A DNA stretch of 38,746 nucleotides from a virus (taxonomy: Duplodnaviria > Heunggongvirae > Uroviricota > Caudoviricetes). Within the stretch, counting starts at the first letter, position 1, and each line of letters opens with the position of its first letter. Position numbers and translations under genes: made by a program. The stretch lies in IMG/VR virus record IMGVR_UViG_2740892229_000013; one strand, written 5' to 3'. Under the pieces are notes generated by a model. That model saw only the letters and a list, made by a program, of their open reading frames with translations, did no database searches and was not told where the DNA came from. Positions 1 through 35,772 of the stretch are shown here, in pieces.

Positions 1-46
1 ATGTTATTACCCGATCTCGATGGAAGTTATTGAGTGATCTCCTTTC

Positions 47-513
47 ATGAAAATACGCAATTACCCAAACAGCGAAGAAACACCTGAACCACTGAAACCC
101 CAACGAAGCCTGTTACCGCAAGGATTCTCTCAATCCCAAAAGACACGAAACAGAACAATCACGGGAAACGCCATTACCCAATACACGAATAACTACAAAA
201 GCCCTTCACACTCCAGACAAACAACTCAAACACAATAACGAAAGGATTCGCCCACCTGCCATTACTCCATACACGGAGAAGAACAATCACCAAAACGACG
301 AGAACACCCCATAGAAGAACCACCGCAAAACTAACGAAACCACATACACCGACAGAGAAAACAACACACCCAATTCACCAACAGAAATAGTCGCCGTATA
401 GAACGTTCTGGAAGGAGTGAGCATTAACGCCTATAGAGAGGTTGAGACAGATAAAACACGAAGAAAACACAACATGTATAGCGAAGAAGCCAGGTATGTA
501 TAAGTGGAGAGGG
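47..513 (+). other. A/C-rich, G/T-poor non-coding tract (possible leader/3'UTR or long ncRNA; rut-like composition)
   Basis: Hand counts: 241-300 = 23A/19C/10G/8T; 301-360 = 30A/19C/8G/3T. The only track ORF (47..238) is low-complexity with no RBS. The tract runs into a strong intrinsic terminator. Confidence 0.55.
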
Positions 514-540
514 AAGGAGGGGTGTCGCCTCCTTTTTCGT
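514..540 (+). terminator. Rho-independent terminator
   Basis: Stem AAGGAGG (514-520) / CCTCCTT (528-534), 7-nt loop, T-run 533-537. Confidence 0.8.
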
Positions 541-600
541 ATTTATTCAACTCCTGATTTTATCCCCCGTAACACCCCTACGGTCAGCCTTCGGTCCATA

Positions 601-735
601 CAGGGAAAAGGCTGCATCCCGCTACAGAAACGGCTGGGTTGCCTTCGGGGAACGGCTGGAGGTTTTCAGGGAAACGGTCGAGTTGCCTGTGTGGATTTCG
701 GGAGAAGGCTCGATGCCGGTTCAGGAACGGTGGCG
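601..735 (+). repeat. Iteron-like direct repeat array, core (G)GGAAACGGCTG, six copies
   Basis: Cores end at 614, 636, 658 and 680 (exact 22-bp phasing), then 712 and ~733. Variants: AAAAGGCTG, AAACGGCTG, GAACGGCTG, AAACGGTCG, GAAGGCTCG, GAACGGTGG. Confidence 0.65.
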
Positions 736-913
736 TACCGGTATAGCGAGAGGGAGAGTTGCGGCTACCCACCTGTAATGTGCGGGAAGAAGAGAGGCGC
801 TCACGTAGGCGGACTTGCTTACCGCTGGATTCCCTCTGAATGCCCAGCTACAGCGTAATTGTGCCAGACAGCCAACGGGTCACAATCGATTTCAGTAGGT
901 TTTCGGGGAGAGG

Positions 914-958
914 ATTATTCTGCCCACCAGCCACTTTCGGCCACTAAATCAGAATAAT
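914..958. repeat. 9-bp inverted repeat ATTATTCTG / CAGAATAAT (stem-loop or protein site)
   Basis: Perfect arms at 914-922 and 950-958. The 27-nt loop contains CCACCAGC (Chi complement, 924-931) and a duplicated GCCACT. Confidence 0.5.
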
Positions 959-1067
959 GTAAAAAGTGTACTCGGTACTGAACCTGAAAACTCACTGCCA
1001 AAACCACATTCACCGGAATAAAATCCTTTTTCGCCTGTGCGTTATTGCGATAATAACACCATCAAGA

Positions 1068-1080
1068 AAACATGTTGTTT
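1068..1080. promoter_or_regulatory. Palindromic leader box AAACATGTTGTTT (variant of AAACAAnTTGTTT)
   Basis: 12/13 identical to the box at 1552-1564. Directly abuts the RBS AAGGA of the 1093 gene. A possible extended -10, TGCGATAAT, lies at 1046-1054. Confidence 0.5.
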
Positions 1081-1092
1081 AAGGATTGCTTT

Positions 1093-1422
1093 ATGTTTGC
1101 AAATATCGACATCAACCAAATCAAGAAATTAACTCAAAAAGAGTTTGATCAGTTTTATGAGTTAGAAGGTTGGTCTTCCACTCTGATCAATTCGCGGTGG
1201 GTGCTTGAGCTGATGACTCGTGATGACGCACCTGCTTTGATGATTTGCGACATGGGTGAAGATGCTGACTTTATGGATATGAGCGAATTTTGTGTGGACA
1301 CATACAACCGCAGCCAGAAGTACTACTTCACATGCGATAGCGAAAATGACGTGATTTCTAAGGTCTATCTTCACCTCGTCCAGCATTGGGACGTTCAGGA
1401 GTTTCTTGAGGTATTCGCGTAA
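1093..1422 (+). CDS. Small acidic hypothetical protein (109 aa)
   Basis: Track ORF 1072..1422 trimmed to ATG 1093 (AAGGA 8 nt upstream; the 1072 ATG lies inside the palindromic box). 21 D/E versus 8 K/R by hand count. Hairpin follows. Confidence 0.7.
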   Translation: MFANIDINQIKKLTQKEFDQFYELEGWSSTLINSRWVLELMTRDDAPALMICDMGEDADFMDMSEFCVDTYNRSQKYYFTCDSENDVISKVYLHLVQHWDVQEFLEVFA

Positions 1423-1431
1423 TCCCAACCA

Positions 1432-1458
1432 AAGCCAGCATTGCTGGCTTAATTTCTC
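1432..1458 (+). terminator. Hairpin terminator (weak U-tract)
   Basis: AAGCCAGCA (1432-1440) / TGCTGGCTT (1442-1450), followed by AATTTCTCT. Confidence 0.55.
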
Positions 1459-1528
1459 TATAGCCGCTGGGAGGAACCTGCATATCGATCATGCACCTGA
1501 TCATTATGCTTTGTAGCCGTTTTCTTAC

Positions 1529-1537
1529 TGGTATTAT
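1529..1537 (+). promoter_or_regulatory. Candidate extended -10 element TGGTATTAT
   Basis: TGnTATTAT match. It places a transcription start ~1544, 8 nt upstream of box 1552-1564. Confidence 0.4.
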
Positions 1538-1551
1538 TTACGCCATTTAGA

Positions 1552-1564
1552 AAACAAGTTGTTT
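1552..1564. promoter_or_regulatory. Palindromic leader box AAACAAGTTGTTT
   Basis: Perfect 6-1-6 palindrome, 4 nt before the GGAG RBS of the 1573 gene. Identical 13-mer at 12362-12374. Confidence 0.6.
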
Positions 1565-1572
1565 ACGGAGTT

Positions 1573-1887
1573 GTGATGAAAAAATCATTGGTTCTTGGTC
1601 TGGACAAAGACCAGAAGAGAAAAGAGAAGCCTGCACTGGTTGCTCAATTAACTTTGCTAGACATCGTTGCCAATGGAACCTCTATTCGTCTGTTCCGTGA
1701 AACAGCGGTGTCTTTCGATAAAAACACCTTTACTCGTTATGTAATGAATGTTCGTCGCCAGCGTGGAAAAGGCTGGATGGCATTTCAAAGAATGTGGCCG
1801 GAACATCAGCTCGAACTGGCTTTGATGGAAGTTAACCGCGTGGCCCAGCAAGAAATTCAGAGAGCATCAGTGATGGCAATAGCCTGA
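1573..1887 (+). CDS. Hypothetical basic protein (104 aa)
   Basis: ORF track. GGAG RBS upstream of GTG 1573 / ATG 1576. Strong terminator follows. Confidence 0.7.
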   Translation: MMKKSLVLGLDKDQKRKEKPALVAQLTLLDIVANGTSIRLFRETAVSFDKNTFTRYVMNVRRQRGKGWMAFQRMWPEHQLELALMEVNRVAQQEIQRASVMAIA

Positions 1888-1921
1888 TAATGTGCAAGTG
1901 GTAATTAGTCGACAGTACGAC

Positions 1922-1950
1922 AGCCCCGCCATCCTTACGGGGCTTTTTTG
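1922..1950 (+). terminator. Rho-independent terminator
   Basis: AGCCCCG (1922-1928) / CGGGGCT (1938-1944), T-run 1944-1949. Confidence 0.85.
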
Positions 1951-1952
1951 TA

Positions 1953-1981
1953 TTGTAAGTACATACTTACGATCATAGAAT
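1953..1981 (+). promoter_or_regulatory. Candidate sigma70 promoter TTGTAA-N17-TAGAAT overlapped by palindrome GTAAGTACATACTTAC (1955-1970)
   Basis: -35 at 1953-1958, -10 at 1976-1981. The 16-bp palindrome covers the -35 and spacer. 44 bp upstream of ATG 2014. Confidence 0.5.
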
Positions 1982-2013
1982 AGAAAAATAACCAAGACAC
2001 TACGGAGAGTGAA

Positions 2014-2409
2014 ATGACCGTTAAACGCGAAAAACTGACAGTTGATGTTTACTATGCCTCTGAAACCGCCGAAGGTAAGAATGTGGCAAAAATCACCGTT
2101 GTTACGTACAACACCGAAACTGGTGCCGAAGTCCAGGCCAGTACGATCGTGCGTAAAGGTGATGCCTCCGGCGGCGAGTACGCGACTCAATACCAGTCCA
2201 TTCTCGATGCAACTGACCCGCTGCTGCTGAAAATCGAGAACTACTTCCGCCAGGTTGATGAAGAGGTGTTTGAAACCATGATGAATATGGTTAACACCGT
2301 ATTCGCCTCCAGCCTGAACACCAGCACCACCTGGATTGGCCAGTACGGTCTGCGCATTACCTCTGGCATTCCTGCCGACACCTTAATCCCTGAAAGCGTA
2401 TTCGCTTAA
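2014..2409 (+). CDS. Hypothetical protein (131 aa)
   Basis: ORF track. GGAGAG RBS. Strong terminator follows. Confidence 0.75.
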   Translation: MTVKREKLTVDVYYASETAEGKNVAKITVVTYNTETGAEVQASTIVRKGDASGGEYATQYQSILDATDPLLLKIENYFRQVDEEVFETMMNMVNTVFASSLNTSTTWIGQYGLRITSGIPADTLIPESVFA

Positions 2410-2417
2410 TCCTCTTT

Positions 2418-2447
2418 AAATGGCGCGCAAACCGCGCCATTTTATTA
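2418..2447 (+). terminator. Rho-independent terminator
   Basis: ATGGCGCG (2420-2427) / CGCGCCAT (2433-2440), 5-nt loop, then TTTATT. Confidence 0.85.
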
Positions 2448-2454
2448 TGCCCGA

Positions 2455-2467
2455 TAACAATTTGTTT
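2455..2467. promoter_or_regulatory. Palindromic leader box TAACAATTTGTTT
   Basis: AACAA-T-TTGTT palindrome just downstream of a TATTAT hexamer (2443-2448). Confidence 0.5.
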
Positions 2468-2526
2468 TCTGCCTTATCTGATTTGTGAAAATGATTTCAC
2501 TGAAGCAACTTAATAAGGAAACCATC

Positions 2527-2901
2527 ATGGGACTTGATATCTATATCGAGACACAGCCTAAAAACGATCTGAATAACGAGGCATCCAGAAAGCAGGTTGC
2601 TTACTTCCGTAAGTTCAATGCGCTCGTTGGGTGGATGGAGCGCAACGTAGGTGAAGTCGAAAATTGTGAGCTTTTAGAATTAACGATGAATGACATTTGT
2701 CTTCTGAAAGCTCATTTGATGCACATAAACGAAAGCAATTGCGAAGAGTACTTGCCTACTCGGGAAGGTTTTTTCTTCGGCAGTCAGGAGTACGACGAAG
2801 GTTACTGGCATGACGTGGATAAGCTGAAAAAACTTGTGGAAGACCTGATCAGGAACCACGACTTTCACAATAACAGACTGACCTTCTGCGCCTGGTGGTA
2901 A
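2527..2901 (+). CDS. Hypothetical acidic protein (124 aa, starts MGLDIYIE)
   Basis: Track ORF 2485..2901 trimmed to ATG 2527 (AAGGA RBS 8 nt upstream). GTG 2485 has no RBS. Confidence 0.7.
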   Translation: MGLDIYIETQPKNDLNNEASRKQVAYFRKFNALVGWMERNVGEVENCELLELTMNDICLLKAHLMHINESNCEEYLPTREGFFFGSQEYDEGYWHDVDKLKKLVEDLIRNHDFHNNRLTFCAWW

Positions 2902-2903
2902 AT

Positions 2904-3047
2904 ATGGGCGATTTCAAGAAACGCCTGAAGGAAAGAGCCGAGATGGTCAGAAAGCAAAACGCCTCTTCTGTCATCAGATACGCAAGGCAGTTTAGTCGCA
3001 ACAACAAATCAGTTGAGGAAAAGATCCTTAGCGTAATCGGTCGATAA
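2904..3047 (+). CDS. Possible small basic protein (47 aa, MGDFKKRLKERAEMVRKQN...)
   Basis: Hand-translated ORF below the track cutoff. ATG lies 2 nt after the upstream stop. A hairpin (AAGGCCA / TGGCCTT) follows. No other support. Confidence 0.35.
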   Translation: MGDFKKRLKERAEMVRKQNASSVIRYARQFSRNNKSVEEKILSVIGR

Positions 3048-3177
3048 TTATTAAGGCCATCAGCATTGGTGGCCTTAAATGACCATCCTGTTTCCCGCAG
3101 GCTAAAAACACCAACCTCTTACCTCCAGGCAACCGACAAACCCACCTGTTCCCGTCCGGCTACCGCAACTTTCCACT

Positions 3178-3206
3178 TTGACGCCTTATTCGTACAACGA
3201 TAATTA
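3178..3206 (+). promoter_or_regulatory. Candidate sigma70 promoter TTGACG-N17-TAATTA
   Basis: -35 at 3178-3183, -10 at 3201-3206. Predicted start ~3213, just before box 3219-3231. Confidence 0.5.
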
Positions 3207-3218
3207 ACACAAACAAGA

Positions 3219-3231
3219 AAACAATTTGTTA
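3219..3231. promoter_or_regulatory. Palindromic leader box AAACAATTTGTTA
   Basis: Same 6-1-6 architecture, 8 nt upstream of the AAGGA RBS of the 3252 gene. Confidence 0.55.
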
Positions 3232-3251
3232 TTTACGATAAGGAATTAATC

Positions 3252-3734
3252 ATGAATTTTATCGCTACTGTAAACGCACCCGCACATGGCAATATCGCTG
3301 TAACGTTCTCTGACATTGAAAAACGAGTACTTGGTGCATGGCGCGACAATGAGACGGTAGAACTGTCAGCACAAGAAAAATGCATTATTGCACGCGACAT
3401 CATTGGCAATCGTCGTTACTCGCGGGTATTTGAGAAAGCGTATGTGGTAAATTCTGGATTCGGAACGTTCGTCTTTCCGGTGCGCTCCGGGCGATTCTGC
3501 CAGTCCAAGCTGATTGAGTTCGCTACGCAGATTTCTGTCTGGATTAAAACTCAATCGTCGTTCAAATTTTCCGACGATGAAGCAGTATCGCAGGGGATGC
3601 GGATCGCCAACAATGCAATTAAATGCAAAAACATTACGTATACCGCTGGCGTTGATACATGGAAACTGTTTTGCGCTAACTTTATGCTGAATGTATACGC
3701 AAGCAACCGCATCCACATCCTTGATGGCGTGTAA
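3252..3734 (+). CDS. Hypothetical protein (160 aa)
   Basis: ORF track. AAGGA RBS. Hairpin follows. Confidence 0.75.
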   Translation: MNFIATVNAPAHGNIAVTFSDIEKRVLGAWRDNETVELSAQEKCIIARDIIGNRRYSRVFEKAYVVNSGFGTFVFPVRSGRFCQSKLIEFATQISVWIKTQSSFKFSDDEAVSQGMRIANNAIKCKNITYTAGVDTWKLFCANFMLNVYASNRIHILDGV

Positions 3735-3737
3735 CTG

Positions 3738-3766
3738 AGAAGAGGGCCAGAAACGGCCCTTTCTCT
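3738..3766 (+). terminator. Hairpin terminator (T-rich 3' arm)
   Basis: AGGGCC (3743-3748) / GGCCCT (3755-3760), extended by GAGAA/TTCTC with one bulge. Confidence 0.5.
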
Positions 3767-3862
3767 ATAGCCACCAGCTGCCGCAGGGAAATTTTCAGAA
3801 ACGGCGAGGAACGTATTCGTGAGCCGACGGGGAACGGCCAGGATTTTTTCGGGAAACGGCTG
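3747..3862 (+). repeat. Second cluster of the GGGAAACGGCTG-type iteron motif (4-5 copies)
   Basis: AAACGGCCC at 3751-3759, AAACGGCGA at 3799-3807, GAACGGCCA at 3832-3840, AAACGGCTG at 3854-3862 (last two 22 bp apart). GGGAAACGGCTGCAT at 3851-3865 mirrors GGGAAAAGGCTGCAT at 603-617. Confidence 0.55.
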
Positions 3863-4152
3863 CATTCGCCTTTGTGTAGAAAAAACATCGGGAAGCTGGT
3901 GGAATCCAACCAGCGGTTGTCGGACAGGTGAGCGGGGAAAATCATGATGACTTTCGTCGCCTGAGACATCCAGATTTCTTTCGTAGCGTAATCACATATG
4001 TGATTAAGTGGTGTGATTATGTGAAAAATCACGCGCACATAATACGCGAGCGGATACGGAACAAAACAAAATGCCGATCCGCGCCGACAATTAAACGCGG
4101 ATCACATAGCAAGAATAAAAGCCAATGATTAACCATACACCATAACGCAATA

Positions 4153-4180
4153 TAACGCGATTTAAGCGCGTTAATGCGCT
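4153..4180. promoter_or_regulatory. Overlapping GCGC-type palindromes (operator-like)
   Basis: TAACGCG (4153-4159) / CGCGTTA (4167-4173), 7-bp arms with a 7-nt spacer. AGCGC (4165-4169) / GCGCT (4176-4180). Confidence 0.4.
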
Positions 4181-4274
4181 AAGTAATGGGTATGTACTGG
4201 TAAGGATATAGAAGCGCGTCTATGGCGTTATTTTGGCGCTTATTTTTATGTTGTTGGCTTGAGTCAAAGACAAT

Positions 4275-4297
4275 AAAAAAAGCGCCATCATTGGCGC
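4275..4297 (-). terminator. Rho-independent terminator (minus strand)
   Basis: GCGCCA (4282-4287) / TGGCGC (4292-4297). The A7 run at 4275-4281 gives a U-run on the minus strand. Confidence 0.75.
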
Positions 4298-4321
4298 GTT
4301 ATGGTGGAAGTATTGGAAACG

Positions 4322-4345
4322 AAAAAAGCGCCCATAGTGGGCGCT
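4322..4345 (-). terminator. Rho-independent terminator (minus strand, possibly bidirectional); 19-bp hairpin copy 1
   Basis: AGCGCCCA-TAG-TGGGCGCT at 4327-4345. An A6 run at 4322-4327 and ATTTTATTT flank it. Lies 6 nt after the stop of the 4351..4581 gene. Confidence 0.8.
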
Positions 4346-4350
4346 CGATT

Positions 4351-4581
4351 TTATTTATGTAGACTGATTTCAAATCCCATTTCTACAAACGCTTTTAACA
4401 TTAAAAATATATCAGCGTCGTTCACGTCTGCTTTTTTTCGCTCCTGGTCGCTCAATAAGTCAATTTTGCGCGTCGTTTCATCTATAAGCTCGACTGCGCG
4501 CCCAGCGTAACCAGCGATCCCAGCGATGCGATTAACATAATATTCGTTATGGACGTTAACGCCAGCGATAAGAACAAACAT
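4351..4581 (-). CDS. Hypothetical protein (76 aa)
   Basis: ORF track. AAGGAG RBS 7 nt upstream on the minus strand. Tandem terminators downstream. Confidence 0.7.
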   Translation of the reverse strand: MFVLIAGVNVHNEYYVNRIAGIAGYAGRAVELIDETTRKIDLLSDQERKKADVNDADIFLMLKAFVEMGFEISLHK

Positions 4582-4601
4582 GATTAAGCTCCTTAAAAAA
4601 A

Positions 4602-4805
4602 TTAAATAGAATTTTGAAGTTTTCCGATTAATGCGCTTAAACGTAAGTATTCACGTTTGCGCTTGCAATCTCGCTTGCTGTTAAGCAAATCAGAAAACGT
4701 AAAATTTAATTGGTCGCGTTGCGCGATTAAATCATCGATTAATTCCAGTTTATAAGCGCGATACTTTGCGCGATATTCCGCGCGGATCTTGTCATAGCTG
4801 ACCAT
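4602..4805 (-). CDS. Hypothetical coiled-coil-like basic protein (67 aa)
   Basis: Track ORF 4602..4850 trimmed to ATG 4805 (AAGGAG 8 nt upstream). The longer version would read through the conserved hairpin. Confidence 0.65.
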   Translation of the reverse strand: MVSYDKIRAEYRAKYRAYKLELIDDLIAQRDQLNFTFSDLLNSKRDCKRKREYLRLSALIGKLQNSI

Positions 4806-4822
4806 TTTCAAAGCTCCTTTAA

Positions 4823-4841
4823 AGCGCCCATAGTGGGCGCT
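4823..4841 (-). repeat. 19-bp hairpin copy 2 (AGCGCCCATAGTGGGCGCT), intercistronic
   Basis: Identical 19-mer to 4327-4345. Shared flanks: A before, yGATT after. Sits between the 216-aa and 67-aa genes. Confidence 0.8.
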
Positions 4842-4853
4842 TGATTCCATTAA

Positions 4854-5504
4854 TTACGCTTTGAAAGCATCAGCTAAATAATTGTAGAAATCATTTTTAA
4901 TGAAGCGATATTGCTGAGTACCAGCTTTCGCACTCCCAGCTCCTTTGACTTTTTCAACAAGTCCAAGACGTTCGCAAAGATTGATCAACTGGTTGGCTTG
5001 AGTATAGCCAGCGTCCAATTTAATTTCACACGCTTTTTTAGCTTCATTCATTAAATCGAAAACAGCGCCATTGGTGAACGTGTCGATCTCGTCGTTAATC
5101 ATATCGATTAAAGCGAATACACGAGATCCTGACATATCAGCGATGGAATAAACGCATTTACCAGATTTAATTGATTTAACCAGATAAACCAGTTTTTCCA
5201 GAGAATAACTATTAGTCATTGCATCACGGAAAAATACTTCTGGCGCTTGTTTGCTTGCTTTAATCGCATAGTAGAAAACAGAGCATAATTTTTCGTCTTC
5301 TACTGCGTTTACGACGTTGTTGATGAAGTAAGCAAGTTTAGTGGTCGCAGCTTGCATATTTGCTTTGTCTGCTTTAGTGTGCGTACCATTTTTATAATGT
5401 TCGTTATATGTTTGAGTTGCCAGATCTGCTTTATCGCGCAGCTCGTCGGATACAATAGATGCAGCTTCAATGATGGACTTTTTAGAAATGATAATGTTAG
5501 CCAT
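4854..5504 (-). CDS. Hypothetical protein (216 aa), AT-rich gene
   Basis: ORF track. AAGGA RBS and its own promoter. 17 G+C in 60 nt at 4861-4920. Confidence 0.8.
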   Translation of the reverse strand: MANIIISKKSIIEAASIVSDELRDKADLATQTYNEHYKNGTHTKADKANMQAATTKLAYFINNVVNAVEDEKLCSVFYYAIKASKQAPEVFFRDAMTNSYSLEKLVYLVKSIKSGKCVYSIADMSGSRVFALIDMINDEIDTFTNGAVFDLMNEAKKACEIKLDAGYTQANQLINLCERLGLVEKVKGAGSAKAGTQQYRFIKNDFYNYLADAFKA

Positions 5505-5569
5505 GATAATTTTTCCTTATGTAAATTTAAAATTTATTGTCGTTAGCGTCTTCGCTTTCGACGAGTTCA

Positions 5570-5597
5570 ATTATCGATACGCGAAAAAAGATTGCAA
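5570..5597 (-). promoter_or_regulatory. Candidate sigma70 promoter TTGCAA-N16-GATAAT with A/T-rich UP-like tract
   Basis: Minus-strand -35 at 5597..5592 and -10 at 5575..5570. A/T runs at 5600-5625 lie upstream. Confidence 0.55.
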
Positions 5598-5743
5598 GTG
5601 TTTTTTTTAAATTTTTTGCAGGGATGAAAGTCCTAGAAATAAAAGCGAGATCGTCGAAGGTGTTCCCTAAATAAATAATCGATTCCGGCTTTCGACCTTA
5701 TATATATTTAGGTTATTTGATTTGTAGATATAAAGAAGTGATG

Positions 5744-5775
5744 TGAAAAATAATAACCGGACTTAGCCGGTTATT
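5744..5775 (-). terminator. Rho-independent terminator (minus strand)
   Basis: AATAACCGG (5752-5760) / CCGGTTATT (5767-5775), 6-nt loop. The A-run at 5744-5750 gives a U-run on the minus strand. Confidence 0.85.
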
Positions 5776-5787
5776 AACCTTATAGAT

Positions 5788-6096
5788 TTATTGAACAGAC
5801 TCTACAGCCTTACGATTGGTGTCAAATAGCGCATCAACGAACTGTGCCGATGACTCGCTAGATTCGCAATCCAACATTGCCCGTTCTTCATTTGCCACTT
5901 TCTTACACAGTTCCACATTCTCACCTATCGCTTTTCCTGCTTTTACGGCTGCCGAAAATTGATACATGCAAACTGATACATTCTGAGACGTTGAGCACAC
6001 GTCATTCATCAGCGACTGAATGACAGGCTTATAGTCCATTGCATTTGCCGCAACTGAGCAAAGTAAAAATAATGGTGGTAACAATATCGATTTCAT
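5788..6096 (-). CDS. Secreted (periplasmic) Cys-containing small protein (102 aa)
   Basis: N-terminal signal peptide MKSILLPPLFLLCSVAANA with an A-x-A cleavage motif. Five Cys in the mature part. Confidence 0.75.
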   Translation of the reverse strand: MKSILLPPLFLLCSVAANAMDYKPVIQSLMNDVCSTSQNVSVCMYQFSAAVKAGKAIGENVELCKKVANEERAMLDCESSESSAQFVDALFDTNRKAVESVQ

Positions 6097-6099
6097 AAC

Positions 6100-6624
6100 T
6101 CAAAAAGGCAAAATTCGTTCAACCCAATCGAACAAAACAACTATTTTTCTACCGTTCTCGACACGTAGTGTAACCTGACAAGCATCTGCGCCTGCTGACA
6201 CCCCCTCAATTTCACGGCCATCCGCCATGTACACCCTTATAGATTTGTTTGCTTTGTAGGCTTGGTTGCAAATTGCAAAAAAATCGCGGCGTGATGGCCG
6301 ATTATCGACATAATCAGGGTGAACTGTTAGTCGACCTTTGAAATCGTGAGCGATACTGTCAACCACACCTGATTCAATTGTACTAATGCGTTCAAGTGGG
6401 AGCCTTATACGATTTTCTTTGTCAAAAGGGGCTGGGCAAAGGTCAACTTTGTTACGAGATGGCATGAGGCCATAAACGTACATGCAAAACGCCTGGCCAT
6501 CTTCGAGAGTGACCCTTACAGGAATTTGTTCTCTGCGCCAGAACATCAGTAGTTTTTCAACGTTAGTGTAATCTCGCGGCCAGAGTTCAGCTTGGATACC
6601 GTAGGTAATATCTTTGGTTGTCAT
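6100..6624 (-). CDS. Hypothetical cytoplasmic protein (174 aa); possible tandem Sm/SH3-like (Rof/Hfq-like) barrels
   Basis: Track ORF 6100..6702 trimmed to ATG 6624 (the rest overlaps the upstream gene). Two segments, IPVRVTLEDGQ...IRLPLERISTIE and IRVYMADGREIEG...VVLFDWVERI, fit the Rof/Hfq pattern from memory. Confidence 0.7.
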   Translation of the reverse strand: MTTKDITYGIQAELWPRDYTNVEKLLMFWRREQIPVRVTLEDGQAFCMYVYGLMPSRNKVDLCPAPFDKENRIRLPLERISTIESGVVDSIAHDFKGRLTVHPDYVDNRPSRRDFFAICNQAYKANKSIRVYMADGREIEGVSAGADACQVTLRVENGRKIVVLFDWVERILPF

Positions 6625-6628
6625 GTCA

Positions 6629-7093
6629 TCACAGAGTTGTTGGCAGAATGTCGATGTCACCAGAATTGCTGGTGAACACCCTGAACGCTTTTGTGTCTCC
6701 ATTCTTCAGAGTCGTTTCTCGCTCTTGACGAGCGGGGTTTAGAGCACATAAACCTGCACCTTCAAGAGATGCACCCACAATTAATTCTCCGGCATTTAAA
6801 TGGAAAGTCGCTTTTTCGCCTGTAGCCAGTTTTGCGACAGTTTCGCCATTGATGAAAATGGAAGCATCACATCCAGCTCCTACAAAACCTGTGTCTCTCA
6901 TTACCACCAACGTAGCTGGCGCTGCGCTTTGATACTTGAACACTTTGGCCTGCGGTGCTGGTTTGGCGTCATGGATTGATATTGGACGTGATTGGCACGC
7001 GGTAAGCATCAACACTGGTAACGTTAGTAGAGGGAGAAGCGAGTATTTCATGTTAGTTTTAGAACAGAAAGTGAACAGTATGGGAGACTTCAT
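6629..7093 (-). CDS. Outer-membrane-type lipoprotein (154 aa; alternative start 7051)
   Basis: Lipobox L-T-A-C with Gln at +2. GGGAG RBS before ATG 7093. Beta-rich mature domain. Confidence 0.8.
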   Translation of the reverse strand: MKSPILFTFCSKTNMKYSLLPLLTLPVLMLTACQSRPISIHDAKPAPQAKVFKYQSAAPATLVVMRDTGFVGAGCDASIFINGETVAKLATGEKATFHLNAGELIVGASLEGAGLCALNPARQERETTLKNGDTKAFRVFTSNSGDIDILPTTL

Positions 7094-7119
7094 CTTTGTC
7101 TCCCTAATTGATAGCGTGA

Positions 7120-7398
7120 TTATTTTAATCTGCTTAATAGCGTTTCGAGATCTTCCTTTGTCATATTAGAGTTCTCATAGATACGCATGATTTTCTCACG
7201 AGTCTTAGCGGAAGCCCCGACAGAAGATATAACCTTGTCAAAGTCGGCCATTGTCAATTGTTCCAGAATGGTATTAATGACTTCAGCCTTAGACATTTTG
7301 ATATTTTTTTCTTTTAGTTTCACTTGAAACTTTCCAAGTTTGTCATTGGCCTTATCAGACAATGCTACCTGACAGTAAGTTGTTTTCTTTTCACTCAT
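7120..7398 (-). CDS. Hypothetical protein (92 aa), N-terminal ribbon-helix-helix-like
   Basis: ORF track. The strand-helix-helix pattern TTYCQVALS / DKANDKLGKF / SKAEVINTILEQL is a pattern-level call only. Starts 2 nt after the helicase stop. Confidence 0.65.
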   Translation of the reverse strand: MSEKKTTYCQVALSDKANDKLGKFQVKLKEKNIKMSKAEVINTILEQLTMADFDKVISSVGASAKTREKIMRIYENSNMTKEDLETLLSRLK

Positions 7399-7400
7399 AA

Positions 7401-8960
7401 CTAATCTCGTTTCAGAACTCCAAAATCGAATGCTCCATCAATAGGCAATACACCTTCTGCAAAGCCAGGTGTGGTGTCGATGATGTGTTTTCGCTCATAA
7501 GAGTGAGACAACAGGTATTTGTTGCTAATGTCAATGAAATCAGTGATAAAACACACGTTTGCCTGATTTTTTTTGGCTCGTAAGCCACGACCGACACGCT
7601 GTCTCATTTCAACTTCTGCTTTCCCACCACCAGCAAGAATGACCGCACCAACGCTTGGCACATCAACACCAACATCCAGAATAGTCGAGCCTATTAAAAC
7701 ATCTATTTCACCAGACGCTAAACTGTTCAGCTTTGCTTGCCTTGTCGTCTGGTTAGATTCCCCATAGATGAAATCAACTCTAAGACCTGACTCCTTCATC
7801 ATCTCCATCAGGATTTGCCCGTGGCGTTTAAGACGAACCAGAGTCATGCAGTTGAGTGAATGTTGCTTATAAAGCAATGCCTCGCGCACTATGGCCTCGT
7901 TACGTCCCAAATTATACACGATCCCCAACTGATAAGCCTTTTGGTAGGCGGTGCTCATACCAACTCTAAAATTGAGATGTTTGTTGGCAAGTTCGGCCTT
8001 GATTCTGGCCTCGTCTGGCTTGTAGGCAACTTTATGATAAAGGAAGTACGGCTTTGCCAGAATGCCTCGATCAATCAGGTACTTTTCTGTGACTTTAATT
8101 TCAATTCGCCCGGCCACCGCCATCAGGCGCATGTTGGCTTCCGTCGAATCCTTCATGAACGGCGTGGCTGTAAGCGCCAGACGATAGTCTGCGTTCACAC
8201 ATAATCTGGCGATGTCATAGAAATTTGAGCCTGAAGACTCATGCGCCTCTTCCAGAATAAGAAGAGAGACACTTGAAAGGAAGCGTTTCACCAACTCCCG
8301 ACGTTTGAGGTGGTAGCTTTTCTTATCTGGTGTTGCATCGCGTGGTGGTTCTTCGAGGAAACTTGCAAGAGTTTGAACTGTAGCGACGTTGATATGTCGT
8401 GATACCTGGAACTCACCCGAGCCAATGACTCCAACCTTTTGGTCTTTTAACCACGGTTCGCCATTTTTGGCGCGGTAGTCGATGGATCTCTGGAAGTTTT
8501 CGGCCATTTGAAACATCAGAACAGAGCGGGTTGTTAAAAATAATGTCATTCGACCGATACGTGCAGCTGCTTTGCAGGCAACATTAGATTTCCCGCCACC
8601 AGTAGCGATCTGCGCAATCATCATTCCCTCTCGAACCAGTGTTTCCACAGTCTGATCCTGATACGCATAATCAGGATTGTATGGGAATGGGTTAACCGCC
8701 GGATTTGGTTTTCCAAGCGCCGGGGCTTTGTCTTTGCGGATATGAACACATTTGATGCCCGCCTTGTTCAAGTTCGCCGCTACAGGCTTGGCAAAGCCTG
8801 CAGGGAACGAGTTTTTACTCCAGTTGAACATTGTGCTTGTGCCCTTCCAGTCGCCAGTCTCGACTTCGTAGCTCAACATCTGTTGCACCAGTTGCTTTAC
8901 CTTGTCATCTGCGCCAGAAATAAGCGCATTAACTGCGTTAGATACAATCCGAACAGTCAT
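7401..8960 (-). CDS. SF2 (DEAD/DEAH-type) DNA helicase, 519 aa
   Basis: Motif I ATGGGKS, motif II LEEAH, motif III TATP, motif VI QRVGRGLR, all read in the translation. Confidence 0.9.
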   Translation of the reverse strand: MTVRIVSNAVNALISGADDKVKQLVQQMLSYEVETGDWKGTSTMFNWSKNSFPAGFAKPVAANLNKAGIKCVHIRKDKAPALGKPNPAVNPFPYNPDYAYQDQTVETLVREGMMIAQIATGGGKSNVACKAAARIGRMTLFLTTRSVLMFQMAENFQRSIDYRAKNGEPWLKDQKVGVIGSGEFQVSRHINVATVQTLASFLEEPPRDATPDKKSYHLKRRELVKRFLSSVSLLILEEAHESSGSNFYDIARLCVNADYRLALTATPFMKDSTEANMRLMAVAGRIEIKVTEKYLIDRGILAKPYFLYHKVAYKPDEARIKAELANKHLNFRVGMSTAYQKAYQLGIVYNLGRNEAIVREALLYKQHSLNCMTLVRLKRHGQILMEMMKESGLRVDFIYGESNQTTRQAKLNSLASGEIDVLIGSTILDVGVDVPSVGAVILAGGGKAEVEMRQRVGRGLRAKKNQANVCFITDFIDISNKYLLSHSYERKHIIDTTPGFAEGVLPIDGAFDFGVLKRD

Positions 8961-8999: not shown

Positions 9000-9025
9000 A
9001 TTATAATAAGTAAGTGATTACTTAG
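9000..9025. promoter_or_regulatory. Divergent promoter core: palindromic -10 ATTATAAT (9000-9007) plus degenerate GTAAGT-N4-ACTTAG palindrome (9010-9025)
   Basis: TATAAT reads on both strands. The 82-bp gap separates the divergent helicase and ParB-like operons. The -35 elements are weak. Confidence 0.45.
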
Positions 9026-9042
9026 TGGATTGTAGCAATAAA

Positions 9043-9726
9043 ATGGATGTAAAAATCACGATTTTGCAGGTTGATGTTGCCAACCTTCGCCCGAATACCT
9101 GGAACACCAATTCGGTTGGTGCGCAGAATTTTGAAAAACTGAAAGGTTCTATCGAAAAATTGGGCTTTTTTAAGCCAATTTTGGCTCGTGAACTTGAAGA
9201 TGGATTTTTTGAAATCCTCGGCGGCGAACATCGCTGGCGTGCCGCTATTGAGCAAGGAATTTCAACGGTTCCAGTGCTTTCTGTGGGCAAAATTAGCGAT
9301 GTCGTAGCTAAACAGATGTCACTGGTGGACAACGAGCGATACGGTGAAGACGACCAAATCGCATTGCAACGCTTCATTGAAGAAATTCAGTCAGAACTTG
9401 ACTATCAACTGTCTGAAATCGCCCCGTATGACGACGAAATCTCGATGGTTTTAGCAAAAGAGGCGGCAATCGACCTTGAAGCACTGGAGGCGTTGTCTCG
9501 TGGTAGTGATGAGCCTGTCGATACCGACAAACGAGAGAAAACCGAACGTGTGGGGGCGGAACATCAGACCATGCGCTTCAAAGTAACTTTCGATGCGTCA
9601 GATCGTGTTGCAGAAACCATAAAAAACATCATCAAAGAGCAGGCTATTAACACCGGTAATGAAATGGAGAACGCTGGTGAGGCTCTGGTGTGGCTGGTCG
9701 ACTACTACTACAAGGAGCGTATGTAA
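9043..9726 (+). CDS. ParB/Srx N-terminal-domain protein 1 (227 aa; alternative GTG start 9025)
   Basis: ParB arginine box ILGGEHRWRAA. Acidic central linker. The stop overlaps the next start (TAATG). Confidence 0.8.
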   Translation: MDVKITILQVDVANLRPNTWNTNSVGAQNFEKLKGSIEKLGFFKPILARELEDGFFEILGGEHRWRAAIEQGISTVPVLSVGKISDVVAKQMSLVDNERYGEDDQIALQRFIEEIQSELDYQLSEIAPYDDEISMVLAKEAAIDLEALEALSRGSDEPVDTDKREKTERVGAEHQTMRFKVTFDASDRVAETIKNIIKEQAINTGNEMENAGEALVWLVDYYYKERM

Positions 9727-10394
9727 TGACCAAAAAGTTTGAAATCGTATATCGCGACCCGGCAGATCTTATTCCCTATGAGATGAATGCCAAAAAGCAT
9801 GATGAACAGCAGATCCGAGATCTAGCCGCAGCCATTAAAAAGCGCGGATTTGACCAGCCAATTACGGTCGATAAGAACGACGTAATTATTACTGGCCACG
9901 GCCGCCGTGAGGCTGCAATTTTTGCTGGACTTGAGCGCGTACCGGTTATTGTTCGCGATGATCTCAGTGATGACGAGGTTCGTGCGAAGCGCCTTGAAGA
10001 TAACCGACTTGCCAGCATTGATTACGATGCAATTAAGCTACAGAAAGAGCTTGAGTCGCTTGTTCTGGACGATATCGAGGTTTTCGGCTTTGAAGAGCGT
10101 GAGTTGAATGTTCTCGTTGGCAGCATGACAGAAGAAATGGACACCGACTCGCTAGTTATCGATCTTGGCGAAGAAACTAAACGACAGAAGGATGAACACA
10201 CCGAGATCAGTCGTGAAGTTGCAGCGGAAGAAGTACGTGTTGTCGACGTATTGGGCTTTAAAACGCTTCCTGCTGGCTCTGCCATTGTTGTTGGTGATTT
10301 GCTTGCCCACATGGAAGAAATGACGGGAGAAAGCGGGGTAGACGCATTTGTGGCATATGCGGAGAAGATCTCTTCCGGGGAGATGGCTGTATGA
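9726..10394 (+). CDS. ParB/Srx N-terminal-domain protein 2 (222 aa)
   Basis: Track ORF 9690 trimmed to ATG 9726 (AAGGAG at 9712-9717). Motif ITGHGRREAA. Acidic linker. Confidence 0.8.
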   Translation: MTKKFEIVYRDPADLIPYEMNAKKHDEQQIRDLAAAIKKRGFDQPITVDKNDVIITGHGRREAAIFAGLERVPVIVRDDLSDDEVRAKRLEDNRLASIDYDAIKLQKELESLVLDDIEVFGFEERELNVLVGSMTEEMDTDSLVIDLGEETKRQKDEHTEISREVAAEEVRVVDVLGFKTLPAGSAIVVGDLLAHMEEMTGESGVDAFVAYAEKISSGEMAV

Positions 10395-11056
10395 GCAAAT
10401 ACATCATCAACGTATCGTTTCAGACACGCGTAAATAAAACCACGCGCACGTTGGAAATCGCTGAGTCGTTCGGGCTTGGCCTGGACGAAAAAGAGTGGAC
10501 GCTTTACGACAATCTGGAGCTGGAAGTGAAGCAGGGCGATGTGGTGTACATCACCGGCCAATCCGGTTCCGGCAAATCCGTTGTGCTGCGCGAGTTGCAA
10601 CGACAGATGAAGGATGAAGGGCTGTCTGTAGCCTCCATCGATGATTTTACCTTCGATAATGAGGTTAACGTCATCGATCAGTTGGGCAAAACGACCAGCG
10701 ATGCGCTTGGGTTGTTATCTATGGCTGGTCTGAACGATGCATATCTGTTTGTTCGCAAGCCTTCTGAAATGTCAGACGGTCAGAAATATCGTCTCAAGAT
10801 TGCCAAACTGATTGAGTCAGGCGCTAAAGTGTGGGCTGCTGACGAGTTCGGTGCTGTTCTAGACCGTGTAACCGCTCAGGTTGTGGCATCTAACCTCCAG
10901 CGTGCCGCTCGAAAGGTTGGTGCGACGGTAATGGTGGCGACGACTCACGAAGACCTGAAGAACGCGCTGCGCCCGGATATGCAGATCACCAAGCACTACA
11001 AAGAACGCGTGAAGGTGGAATATCACAATGGTAGTCATGATGAGGTTCATTTATGA
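10391..11056 (+). CDS. ABC-type / P-loop ATPase (221 aa)
   Basis: Walker A GQSGSGKS, signature-like SDGQKYR, Walker B VWAADEF, H-loop-like TTHED. ATGA overlaps at both ends. Confidence 0.85.
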   Translation: MSKYIINVSFQTRVNKTTRTLEIAESFGLGLDEKEWTLYDNLELEVKQGDVVYITGQSGSGKSVVLRELQRQMKDEGLSVASIDDFTFDNEVNVIDQLGKTTSDALGLLSMAGLNDAYLFVRKPSEMSDGQKYRLKIAKLIESGAKVWAADEFGAVLDRVTAQVVASNLQRAARKVGATVMVATTHEDLKNALRPDMQITKHYKERVKVEYHNGSHDEVHL

Positions 11057-11952: not shown

Positions 11953-12219
11953 ATGACGTTAACCGATAAACAAAAGGACATCATCAAAACGCTCAATCTC
12001 GGTTATGAGCGAGGTCATCTACTTGACCTGGACGAATTGCTTGAAGTTTTGCCGTACAAGACAACCAAGCAAAGTATCCAGTTCTCAATTCGCGCTCTGA
12101 TAAAAAAGGGGCTGGTGGAGAAAGGGCATACGCGCCAACGCAGTGACAATCGCTATCACCGCCGAACTCTTGGGTTAACCACTTTAGGTCGAGCCAAAGC
12201 GAAGTTACTGGTGATGTAA
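11953..12219 (+). CDS. Small winged-helix DNA-binding protein (88 aa)
   Basis: wHTH-like segment TTKQSIQFSIRALIKKGLVEKG. TAAGGA RBS. Last gene before the packaging module. Confidence 0.6.
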   Translation: MTLTDKQKDIIKTLNLGYERGHLLDLDELLEVLPYKTTKQSIQFSIRALIKKGLVEKGHTRQRSDNRYHRRTLGLTTLGRAKAKLLVM

Positions 12220-12252: not shown

Positions 12253-12289
12253 GTATATATAAATAATAAGTAACTTATTAAATATATAC
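12253..12289. repeat. AT-rich imperfect palindrome centred on AATAAGT-A-ACTTATT (12265-12279)
   Basis: Perfect 15-bp palindrome with GTATATAT...ATATATAC outer arms. Shares the TAAGTA half-site with the GTAAGTA palindrome family. Confidence 0.5.
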
Positions 12290-34660: not shown

Positions 34661-35623
34661 ATGTGGTACAGGGAAGGTACTATCACATTTACACAGGGCA
34701 GCAATACTCTGGTTGGGGCAGGGACAGCCTGGAACGTAACAGCTAATGGTGTGTTGCCGGGGATGATCGTCATTGGCCCCGACAATAAGCTGTATGAGAT
34801 CAAGCGCGTAACCAGTGATACGAACATTGTTCTCTCAGAACCTTATACCGGCGAAACTCAGTCTGAAGTTCCGTGCCGAATCATTACGACCTATGAAGGC
34901 GACTTAACACAGTTTAGCGCGCGCTTTACAGCACTAATGTCGCGTATGTCGGCTGATTCCAAGTCCATGCGCAGTTGGTTGACTGCTCTGGATGAGGTGA
35001 CAATCGAGCGTGAAGACGGTACAGAAGTGACCGTTAAGCCGCTAATGCAGATCGTCAACGAGCACAACGAAAACGTTGAGTGGTATAAAAATAACACTGA
35101 CGCGATTGATGCTGCTGGCGACAAAGCTCGTGAGGCGGCGGCCAGTGCTGCCGCAGCAGCAGAAAGCGCCAATATCGCTGGAGAAAAAGCCTCTCAAGCG
35201 TCTCAAAGTGCATCCGCTGCAGAGTCCTCAAAAAGCGCGGCGGCCACCAGTGCCGGTGCCGCGAAAACGTCTGAAACGAATGCTGCAGCGTCACAAAAAT
35301 CTGCAGCCACTTCTGCATCCACCGCGACCACGAAAGCGTCAGAAGCTGCCACCTCAGCCCGGGATGCGGCGGCCTCAAAAGAGGCAGCGAAATCATCAGA
35401 AACGAGCGCAGCCTCGAGCGCCAGTAATGCCGCTTCCTCGGCAACGGCGGCAGGAAATTCCGCGAAGGCGGCAAAAACGTCCGAGACGAACGCCAGGTCT
35501 TCTGAAACGGCAGCGGGACAGAGCGCCTCGGCTGCGGCAGGCTCAAAAACAGCGGCTGCGTCGTCTGCCAGTGCAGCGTCAACAAGTGCCGGGCAGGCCT
35601 CAGCCAGTGCCACCGCCGCCGGA
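34661..35623 (+). CDS. Tail fibre protein, 5' part (truncated by scaffold gap)
   Basis: AAGGAG RBS. N-terminus MWYREGTITFTQGSNTLVGAGTAW is typical of phage fibre N-termini. From ~35212 it carries the Stf-type Ala/Ser-rich repeat. The ORF runs into the N-run. Confidence 0.85.
35212..35623 (+). repeat. Stf-type Ala/Ser-rich repeat block (copy in the phage fibre gene)
   Basis: Near-identical at nucleotide level to 36331-36372, 36455-36815 and 36827-37165 (AAESSKSAAATSAGAAKTSETNAAASQKSAATSAS...). Confidence 0.85.
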
Positions 35624-35633
35624 NNNNNNNNNN
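35624..35633. other. Scaffold gap (10 N)
   Basis: Run of n characters. The flanking sequences belong to different genes (fibre repeat versus lom 3' end). Confidence 1.
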
Positions 35634-35708
35634 GTCGCTTATGAAGGCTCCGGCAGTGGTGACTGGCGCACTGACGGGTTCATCGTGGGTGTTGGTTATA
35701 AATTCTGA
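35634..35708 (+). pseudogene. lom: 3' terminal fragment of a lom (Ail/Lom outer-membrane protein) gene, 24 codons
   Basis: Translation VAYEGSGSGDWRTDGFIVGVGYKF* matches my memory of the lambda Lom C-terminus. The 5' part is lost in the gap. Confidence 0.85.
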
Positions 35709-35734
35709 TTAGCCAGGTAACACAGTGTTATGAC

Positions 35735-35761
35735 AGCCCGCCGGTTCAGGCGGGCTTTTTT
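35735..35761 (+). terminator. Rho-independent terminator
   Basis: AGCCCGCC (35735-35742) / GGCGGGCT (35749-35756), T-run 35756-35761. Confidence 0.9.
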
Positions 35762-35772
35762 GTGGGGTGAAT

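Follow-up and report, generated by a model that had tools for sequence, protein, structure and literature searches.

A conserved array of phased direct repeats between facing Chi octamers in a non-coding gap of SSU5-type phage-plasmids

The non-coding gap at positions 3735-4350 of a 38,746-nucleotide (nt) stretch of tailed-phage DNA (IMG/VR record IMGVR_UViG_2740892229_000013, hereafter the window) is very probably a cis-acting site, in which phased repeats for protein binding are sheltered by flanking transcription terminators and form one of two paralogous arrays. The window was placed by BLAST in the SSU5/pHCM2/pMT1 group of phage-plasmids, with about 97% identity to the Escherichia phages CMS-2020a, PhiR41_1 and Cyrano, and the gap itself is 100% identical over its whole length in the E. 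coli plasmid NZ_CP027358.1. The gap is flanked on the left by a plus-strand gene for a 160-amino-acid (aa) protein and on the right by a minus-strand block comprising small variable genes, a conserved gene for a 216-aa protein (phrog_1513), a FljA-like gene and a UvsW-like helicase gene. It bears no annotation in the records of PhiR41_1 and Cyrano, and in the literature searched neither a description of the region, nor a mapped lytic (phage-mode) origin for the SSU5-type family, nor a mapping of the switch from plasmid to phage replication was found. Phage-plasmids of this type are very common in clinical Enterobacteriaceae, pMT1 of Yersinia pestis and pHCM2 of S. Typhi being among them, and carry resistance genes; the invariant array pair offers a concrete, testable cis-site and a candidate binder for dissecting their phage-mode replication or the control of their accessory block.

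The homologous gap was present in 784 plasmid records and in 239 complete E. coli genomes, always plasmid-borne, and measured 590-665 base pairs (bp) in all of the approximately 25 relatives whose gene coordinates were checked (Escherichia, Klebsiella, Enterobacter, Citrobacter, Salmonella, Cronobacter, Kluyvera, Buttiauxella, and Yersinia pestis). A gap of this size was present in every one of about 100 relatives that were considered. Two sets of homologues were aligned, one of 10 sequences spanning the genera and one of 15 diverse sequences, and the best-conserved parts in them were the box CCGCAGGGAAA, the three repeats and the two minus-strand terminators. Column conservation peaked at 0.85-0.90 over 3772-3871 and at 0.84-0.85 over the terminators, as compared with about 0.76 for the coding sequence of the 160-aa gene; the repeat array is conserved equally to the flanking genes or better. 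Thus, the initial annotation, made from the letters of the DNA and their open reading frames, was right to see more than a simple stop zone here, and the comparison among related phages shows the gap and its repeats to be kept family-wide. The elements that carry this conclusion are given below by window coordinates and strand; the Chi counts refer to about 62 distinct versions of the downstream array, i.e., 72 distinct family segments less about 10 upstream arrays.

604-735, plus strand: paralogous upstream array of 5-7 repeat copies, the first four exactly 22 bp apart.
3737-3767, plus strand: intrinsic terminator of the 160-aa gene (-17.7 kcal/mol, z -4.5).
3771-3778, minus strand: left Chi octamer, CCACCAGC as read on the plus strand, in 52 of the about 62 versions.
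3781-3791, plus strand: conserved box CCGCAGGGAAA, in 14 of the 15 diverse homologues (two with 1-2 mismatches), diverged in L024.
3796-3809, plus strand: repeat R1, cAGAAACGGCgagg, 33/34 bp before R2 in 61 family segments.
3828-3842, plus strand: repeat R2, CGGGGAACGGCCAGG.
3846-3863, plus strand: repeat R3, TTTTCGGGAAACGGCTGC, best conserved of the copies, with a 22-bp spacing from R2 in 67 of the 72 segments.
3889-3899, plus strand: possible degenerate fourth copy, CGGGAAGCTGG (CGGGAGAAGCC in relatives), weak.
3895-3902, plus strand: right Chi octamer, GCTGGTGG, facing the left one across the repeats; a right-hand Chi is found in 56 of the about 62 versions.
4275-4297, minus strand: distal terminator T1, hairpin and U-run (-10.7 kcal/mol, z -3.0).
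4322-4346, minus strand: proximal terminator T2, hairpin and U-run (-15.5 kcal/mol, z -4.8), invariant.

The three repeats, with the consensus cGGGAAACGGCyrG, lie on the same strand, and their spacings of 33/34 and 22 bp, conserved across the 72 distinct family segments in the proportions listed, equal three and two helical turns, which puts the repeats on one face of the helix. The core motif is written here in shorthand as GGGAAACGGC; the window has 12 occurrences of the octamer GRAACGGC, where 2.5 are expected. Four iteron-core copies had initially been reported over 3751-3862, namely GAAACGGC at 3750, 3798 and 3853 and GGAACGGC at 3831. Those at 3798, 3831 and 3853 are real and invariant or nearly so across genera, the last two standing 22 bp apart exactly as reported, whereas the site at 3750 was rejected as a repeat: it belongs to the terminator of the 160-aa gene, of which it makes up the loop and 3' arm, and it reads GAAACGCC in most relatives. 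The strongest conservation was found in R3, whose core TTTxGGGAAACGGC is invariant in 15 of 15 diverse homologues (x is C in 13 and A in 2), even where the neighbouring proteins are only 51-53% identical and the flanking DNA has diverged. The putative fourth copy lies 39 bp past R3, hence out of helical phase, and is doubtful for that reason; the same element follows the upstream array. A motif search in viral contigs returned about 55 family members and about 15 unrelated matches without the family genes.

The gap repeats were described at the outset as a second iteron cluster, and they are indeed a genuine second copy of the array at 604-735: the 50-nt core common to both aligned with a score of 39, against 20 +/- 2.2 (maximum 28) for shuffled sequences, while no similarity between the two was found outside the repeats. 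In the complete, 110-kb NZ_CP027358.1 the motif clusters at two places only, the two arrays. They are about 3.1 kb apart, and in nearly every relative with enough flank they bracket, on the same strand, a block of small plus-strand genes that varies in gene number and content. A -10-like hexamer (TATAGC, TATAGA, TATATA or TATGTA) stands 10-12 nt past the last repeat of both arrays, with no -35 element. Within the bracketed block, imperfect palindromes of the type AGAAAACAAnTTGTTTTCT occur at 1051-1085, 1535-1569, 2450-2470 and 3202-3236, each 20-35 nt ahead of a small-gene start codon, and were also seen before small genes in L173 and L028; they could be hairpins in the RNA, promoter elements or an operator that the genes share. 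A FljA-like protein, of an RNA-binding repressor family, is encoded near the genes with these palindromes.

Terminators close the gap on both sides. At 3737-3767 on the plus strand and at 4275-4297 and 4322-4346 on the minus strand, a GC-rich hairpin followed by a U-run stands at a gene 3' end and folds far more stably than shuffled sequence, as expressed by the z-scores above, and the region 3500-4700 contains 9 terminator-like sites against 1.6 expected. The two tandem minus-strand terminators of the initial annotation (4275-4297 and 4322-4345) are therefore real, with the hairpin kept in homologues: that of T1 was found in 15 of 15, with loop and stem variants, and T2 is terminator-like on the plus strand too. 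In the stem at 3737-3767, GGGCC/GGCCC is replaced by GGGGC/GCCCC in relatives and by GGGAGA/TCTCCC in L024 and L027. A weak plus-strand terminator-like site lies at 4224-4250. The same GC-rich hairpins and U-runs at gene ends are seen in known intrinsic terminators, and only the tandem layout and the reuse of the hairpin at 4821-4847 are unusual here. The T2 hairpin AAAGCGCCCATAGTGGGCGCT occurs twice, 496 bp apart, at 4321-4358 and 4821-4854, and its copies flank small genes at 4351-4805 that are missing in Cronobacter, L024 and L026, which suggests insertion of these genes between the terminator copies.

The facing octamers noticed at 3771-3778 and 3895-3902 proved to be exact Chi sites, GCTGGTGG on the minus and plus strands, respectively. 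Both were present together in 49 of the about 62 versions, the left one being missing in the three most divergent relatives. The position of the right Chi depends on the clade: +44 for the E. coli one, +65 for a Klebsiella one and +88 for most of the rest. A 27-nt deletion may have turned +88 into +65. The +44 site is not homologous in position; substitution created it, in a clade that lost the +88 site, and the positional shift looks like turnover under selection. RecBCD recognises Chi only on approach from the 3' side of the octamer, and by this rule both predicted sites would halt an enzyme moving towards the array. By the established orientation rules, the polarity, CCACCAGC on the left and GCTGGTGG on the right, is that expected around a bidirectional origin and is opposite to the one needed to protect the tail of a rolling circle or a fork that breaks at the array. 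The octamers are the same as those of the Chi hotspots of E. coli, are over-represented as in the host chromosome, and switch polarity across the array as they do across oriC; they differ in that conservation extends to one particular pair, pointing inwards around a non-coding array of 120-170 bp, with one member shifting its position. Such a pair would exemplify something rare, selection on a particular arrangement of Chi sites outside coding DNA.

The gap, in which the initial annotation saw no open reading frame (ORF) with a ribosome-binding site, does contain ORFs of 35-118 aa, and RefSeq occasionally annotates a minus-strand ORF of 50 aa; none of them, the RefSeq one included, keeps frame or length across the 15 homologues, with indels that are not multiples of three. 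A small protein gene was rejected on these grounds. The search for RNA was likewise negative: Rfam 15 gave zero matches at the gathering score and only sub-threshold, chance-level matches on the terminators, no tRNA or tmRNA gene was found, and the covariation term of RNAalifold was +3.4 (a positive value being unfavourable), with conserved helices at the terminators only. A known or structured RNA was accordingly rejected on the Rfam gathering and E-value searches together with RNAalifold.

The right part of the gap is less uniform among relatives, and its features, with the two conserved neighbouring genes, are as follows.

3252-3734, plus strand: gene of the 160-aa protein (phrog_1641; PHROG E-value 7e-97), always directly upstream of the gap.
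3903-4140, no strand: spacer without a conserved ORF or RNA structure, with the moderately conserved blocks CCATCCAGAT, GTGATTATGTGAA, ATACGCGAGCG and GCGGATCAC.
4020-4028, minus strand: single perfect DnaA-box consensus, TTTTTCACA, one of two in the window against 3.8 expected.
4065-4104, minus strand: clade-specific hairpin and U-run with GATC in both arms (-18.3 kcal/mol, z -3.5), in the E. coli clade only.
4143-4180, no strand: short TAACGC/TAAGCGC repeats about 10-11 nt apart, including two palindromes.
4183-4197, no strand: conserved block GTAATGGGTATGTAC, about 10 of 15 columns invariant and the others nearly so in the 10 homologues.
4854-5504, minus strand: gene of the 216-aa protein (phrog_1513), the candidate repeat-binding protein.

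The spacer shows many indels and clade-specific replacement in both alignments, and the block GTAATGGGTATGTAC has diverged in L024, L027 and L029. The overlapping palindromes pointed out earlier, TAACGCG-N7-CGCGTTA at 4153-4173 and AGCGC-N6-GCGCT at 4165-4180, do exist, but they are not conserved as palindromes among relatives, where only short direct repeats of the TAACGC type recur; the homologous position carries AAAACGC direct repeats in relatives and an 11-nt tandem array in L024. The homologous spacer of this divergent relative combines the tandem array with three GATC sites and an AT-rich stretch of about 110 nt, as judged by eye. The density of GCGC/CGCG reaches its maximum for the window at 4030-4350, with 18 occurrences in 321 nt against 2.55 +/- 2.5. 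The GCGC/CGCG-dense stretch extends to about 4900, and the terminator stems account for only a part of it.

Among the neighbouring products, the 160-aa protein gave no Pfam match, and its AlphaFold2 model (pLDDT, the model confidence score, 89) gave no fold match in the PDB. The 216-aa protein is a winged-helix protein with an invariant recognition helix, which resembles regulators of the ArsR/MarR type and whose fold matches include TubR. Distant homologues of both proteins were sought outside the family, and both are family-restricted; a weak link is a Serratia contig in which a 62%-identical homologue of a neighbouring protein is encoded about 530 nt from two GAAAAGGC copies that are 21 nt apart. 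By its adjacency, distribution and fold, the 216-aa protein is the best candidate for the repeat binder. Farther along the minus strand, a 200-aa protein (6100-6702) matches the Pfam family Flag1_repress (FljA, the phase-1 flagellin repressor) with an E-value of 2.5e-84, and is conserved family-wide beside the UvsW-like helicase. Two consecutive ParB_N proteins and an ABC-type ATPase are encoded at 9025-11056, directly ahead of the terminase region; they, too, are conserved in the family.

As to function, the tentative preference is that the gap serves as an origin, or origin-control site, for phage-mode (lytic) replication by the helicase, primase and DnaE of the element. It is weakly favoured by the DnaB-like helicase, primase, DnaE and ligase that the element encodes (as seen in the record NZ_CP027358.1) in combination with the lack of a mapped lytic origin in the searched literature, by the layout of repeats, spacer and AT-richer half with 10-11-nt repeats, which is clearest in L024, by the two-sided insulation from transcription, and by the Chi polarity that fits an origin. 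Also counted in its favour are the perfect DnaA box in the spacer, the family-wide conservation and fixed spacing of the repeats, and the winged helix of the 216-aa neighbour. Transcription entering the gap from the left is stopped by the terminator of the 160-aa gene and that entering from the right by the two tandem terminators, which in such a site would keep transcription out of the origin. The array is probably the docking site of a family-specific DNA-binding protein, and copies of this protein would load side by side on the repeats to form a nucleoprotein complex; the two arrays could pair with each other, opening would take place in the spacer and the AT-richer right half, and RecBCD would be halted short of the array by the two inward-facing Chi sites. 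Phage lytic origins with iteron arrays are exemplified by lambda ori, with its O-protein sites, and by oriL/oriR of SPP1, with G38P boxes in two separated clusters. The gap shares with them phased repeats of the same orientation, here three conserved copies, beside a less GC-rich stretch, as well as the element's own replisome genes, and has in common with SPP1 two separated repeat clusters in one genome. In contrast to lambda and SPP1, no initiator gene contains or adjoins the gap repeats, and the AT-rich element is weak. A more far-reaching proposal, which should be considered unlikely, is that the two GGGAAACGGC arrays together with the 216-aa protein, and possibly the 160-aa protein of a potentially novel fold, constitute an unrecognised second replicon or origin-control system, with the Chi pair, selectively maintained, guarding it against RecBCD; if true, the second replicon would serve phage-mode replication in the SSU5/pHCM2/pMT1 phage-plasmids. 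Phased direct-repeat arrays as such are of a known kind, while the array pair, its family-wide invariance and the Chi flanks are not described in the searched literature.

Several observations weigh against the phage-mode origin. Its functional steps are all inferred, the repeat binder being proposed solely from adjacency and fold; the 160-aa neighbour has no recognisable fold, and no initiator gene was identified. The DnaA box at 4020-4028 is clade-specific and not conserved beyond the E. coli clade, GATC is not enriched in the gap (2 against 1.3 expected), the A+T content of the right half is only 58-68% at 4100-4270, which is modest, and GC skew gives no origin signal, being monotonic and tracking gene orientation. 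The upstream array has no spacer comparable to that of the gap. Neither array is indispensable alone, at least one being always present: pMT1 has no upstream array but a copy of IS1541 in that region, and the viral contig L173 (IMGVR_UViG_2869154154_000004) has neither the 160-aa gene nor the downstream array. Chi is enriched over the whole element, with 10 sites in the window and 22 in the 110-kb relative against about 1.2 and 3.4 expected, so that presence alone means little and it is conservation that makes the pair notable. In L173, on the reverse complement of its positions 3640-4900, only one small gene separates the upstream array from the right half of the gap.

Nearly as likely as the phage-mode origin is control of transcription or DNA architecture without a role in replication, with the arrays, one before and one after the small-gene block, as its operators or activator sites; by looping to each other, the two arrays may switch the block between the plasmid and lytic states. 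This would fit the bracketing of a co-oriented variable block by same-strand arrays, the resemblance of the 216-aa winged-helix neighbour to ArsR/MarR-type regulators and the natural variants that miss either array; the -10-like hexamers without a -35 after both arrays would resemble activator-dependent promoters. However, all these hexamers are devoid of the critical final T, and a sigma-70 scan of 3500-4700 found no canonical promoter; transcription from a promoter at the gap array would run into some 400 nt of non-coding sequence, and the upstream array is about 340-380 nt away from the first start codon, with each small gene having its own palindromic motif near its start. It is considerably less probable that the gap is mainly a bidirectional termination zone, whose repeats and Chi sites form a conserved linker serving as homology and a recombination hotspot for swapping of the variable block between phage-plasmids. 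The three strong terminators, the variable gene content between the arrays, the Chi sites adjoining both arrays (924, 3771 and 3895), the end of the L173 rearrangement inside the gap and the terminator hairpin duplicated around inserted small genes all agree with a linker, which nevertheless leaves unexplained the invariant 10-nt cores amid variable intervening bases, their spacing by helical multiples and their survival where flanking homology has been lost.

A centromere-like or DNA-organising site, at which the arrays would load a segregation or condensation system, is improbable. Repeat arrays are known from plasmid centromeres, such as parC of R1, parC1/parC2 of pB171 and tubC with TubR, and the phased short direct repeats in two clusters, with a TubR-like winged helix encoded next to them and the ParB_N proteins and ABC-type ATPase about 5 kb away, recall these. 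In the known centromeres, though, a partition operon is bracketed or adjacent, whereas no partition nucleoside triphosphatase (ParA, ParM or TubZ) was found in the window at 1-8960, beside either array or elsewhere in that part, and the bracketed genes encode small proteins without an assigned function; moreover, relatives have a separate operon with a small ParA-like ATPase (84.2-85.3 kb of the record), and ParB_N proteins normally act on palindromic parS sites. Still less credible is the "unannotated ncRNA locus" of the initial annotation, a gene for a non-coding RNA on one strand or the other of the spacer. Some 350 nt without a conserved ORF, the weak terminator-like site at 4224-4250 and the hairpin and U-run at 4065-4104 would agree with it, but the absence of an Rfam match, the unfavourable covariation, the lack of a canonical promoter and the many indels with clade-specific spacer replacement speak against such a gene.

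The proposal of a candidate replication origin has failed in its plasmid sense. A part of the plasmid-prophage replicon, either the origin or an incA-like copy-control locus for the RepB-family/IncFIB Rep, might be suspected from repeat clusters flanking genes, as in the incC-repA-incA layout of P1, yet it can practically be dismissed, the sequence having already refuted it. The rep gene of the RepB family lies at 52.3-53.5 kb of NZ_CP027358.1, about 38 kb from the gap locus, within a P1-like oriR region outside the window (L016 2140-4020, corresponding to 52.1-54.0 kb of NZ_CP027358.1), where two DnaA boxes and eight GATC sites in 80 nt are found upstream of rep and the iterons TATGCTGTCAGCGG number five upstream and at least 9 downstream of it (at least 14 in total). 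The gap motif GGGAAACGGC is absent around oriR, the Rep iteron TATGCTGTCAGCGG was not seen in the gap, and no Rep domain was found in the proteins neighbouring the gap (160 aa and 76-216 aa); of the marks of an iteron plasmid origin, the Rep-site repeats, an adjacent rep and a GATC cluster are lacking at the gap, where a single, clade-specific DnaA box is present. The likeness to a P1-type oriR with incC/incA, of which this same family has a real example, is confined to direct repeats in two clusters that flank genes, whereas the gap arrays differ in repeat sequence, have no rep between or beside them and no GATC cluster, and are distant from oriR.

Some further features of the window concern its ends and the DNA next to the upstream array. 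The first 54-59 bases (1-59) match the 3' end of lambdoid tail-fibre-assembly genes with 100% identity, and no plasmid record connects them with base 55 onward; positions 35186-38746, up to the end, match lambdoid side-tail-fibre genes. The two ends of the window probably lie at repeats common with resident prophages, as contig boundaries, or the window derives from a rearranged element. A 340-nt non-coding tract (60-400) that shortly precedes the first repeat array (604-735), with 75% A+C (G 13%, T 12%), about 6 standard deviations over the window mean, is the most strand-asymmetric stretch of the window and falls inside a non-coding region of about 1.5 kb in relatives. A plus-strand Chi octamer lies at 12111-12118, about 170 bp inside window position 12281, at which the genome records of SSU5 and Cyrano start; if this position is a real virion DNA end, the octamer would be well placed for its protection.

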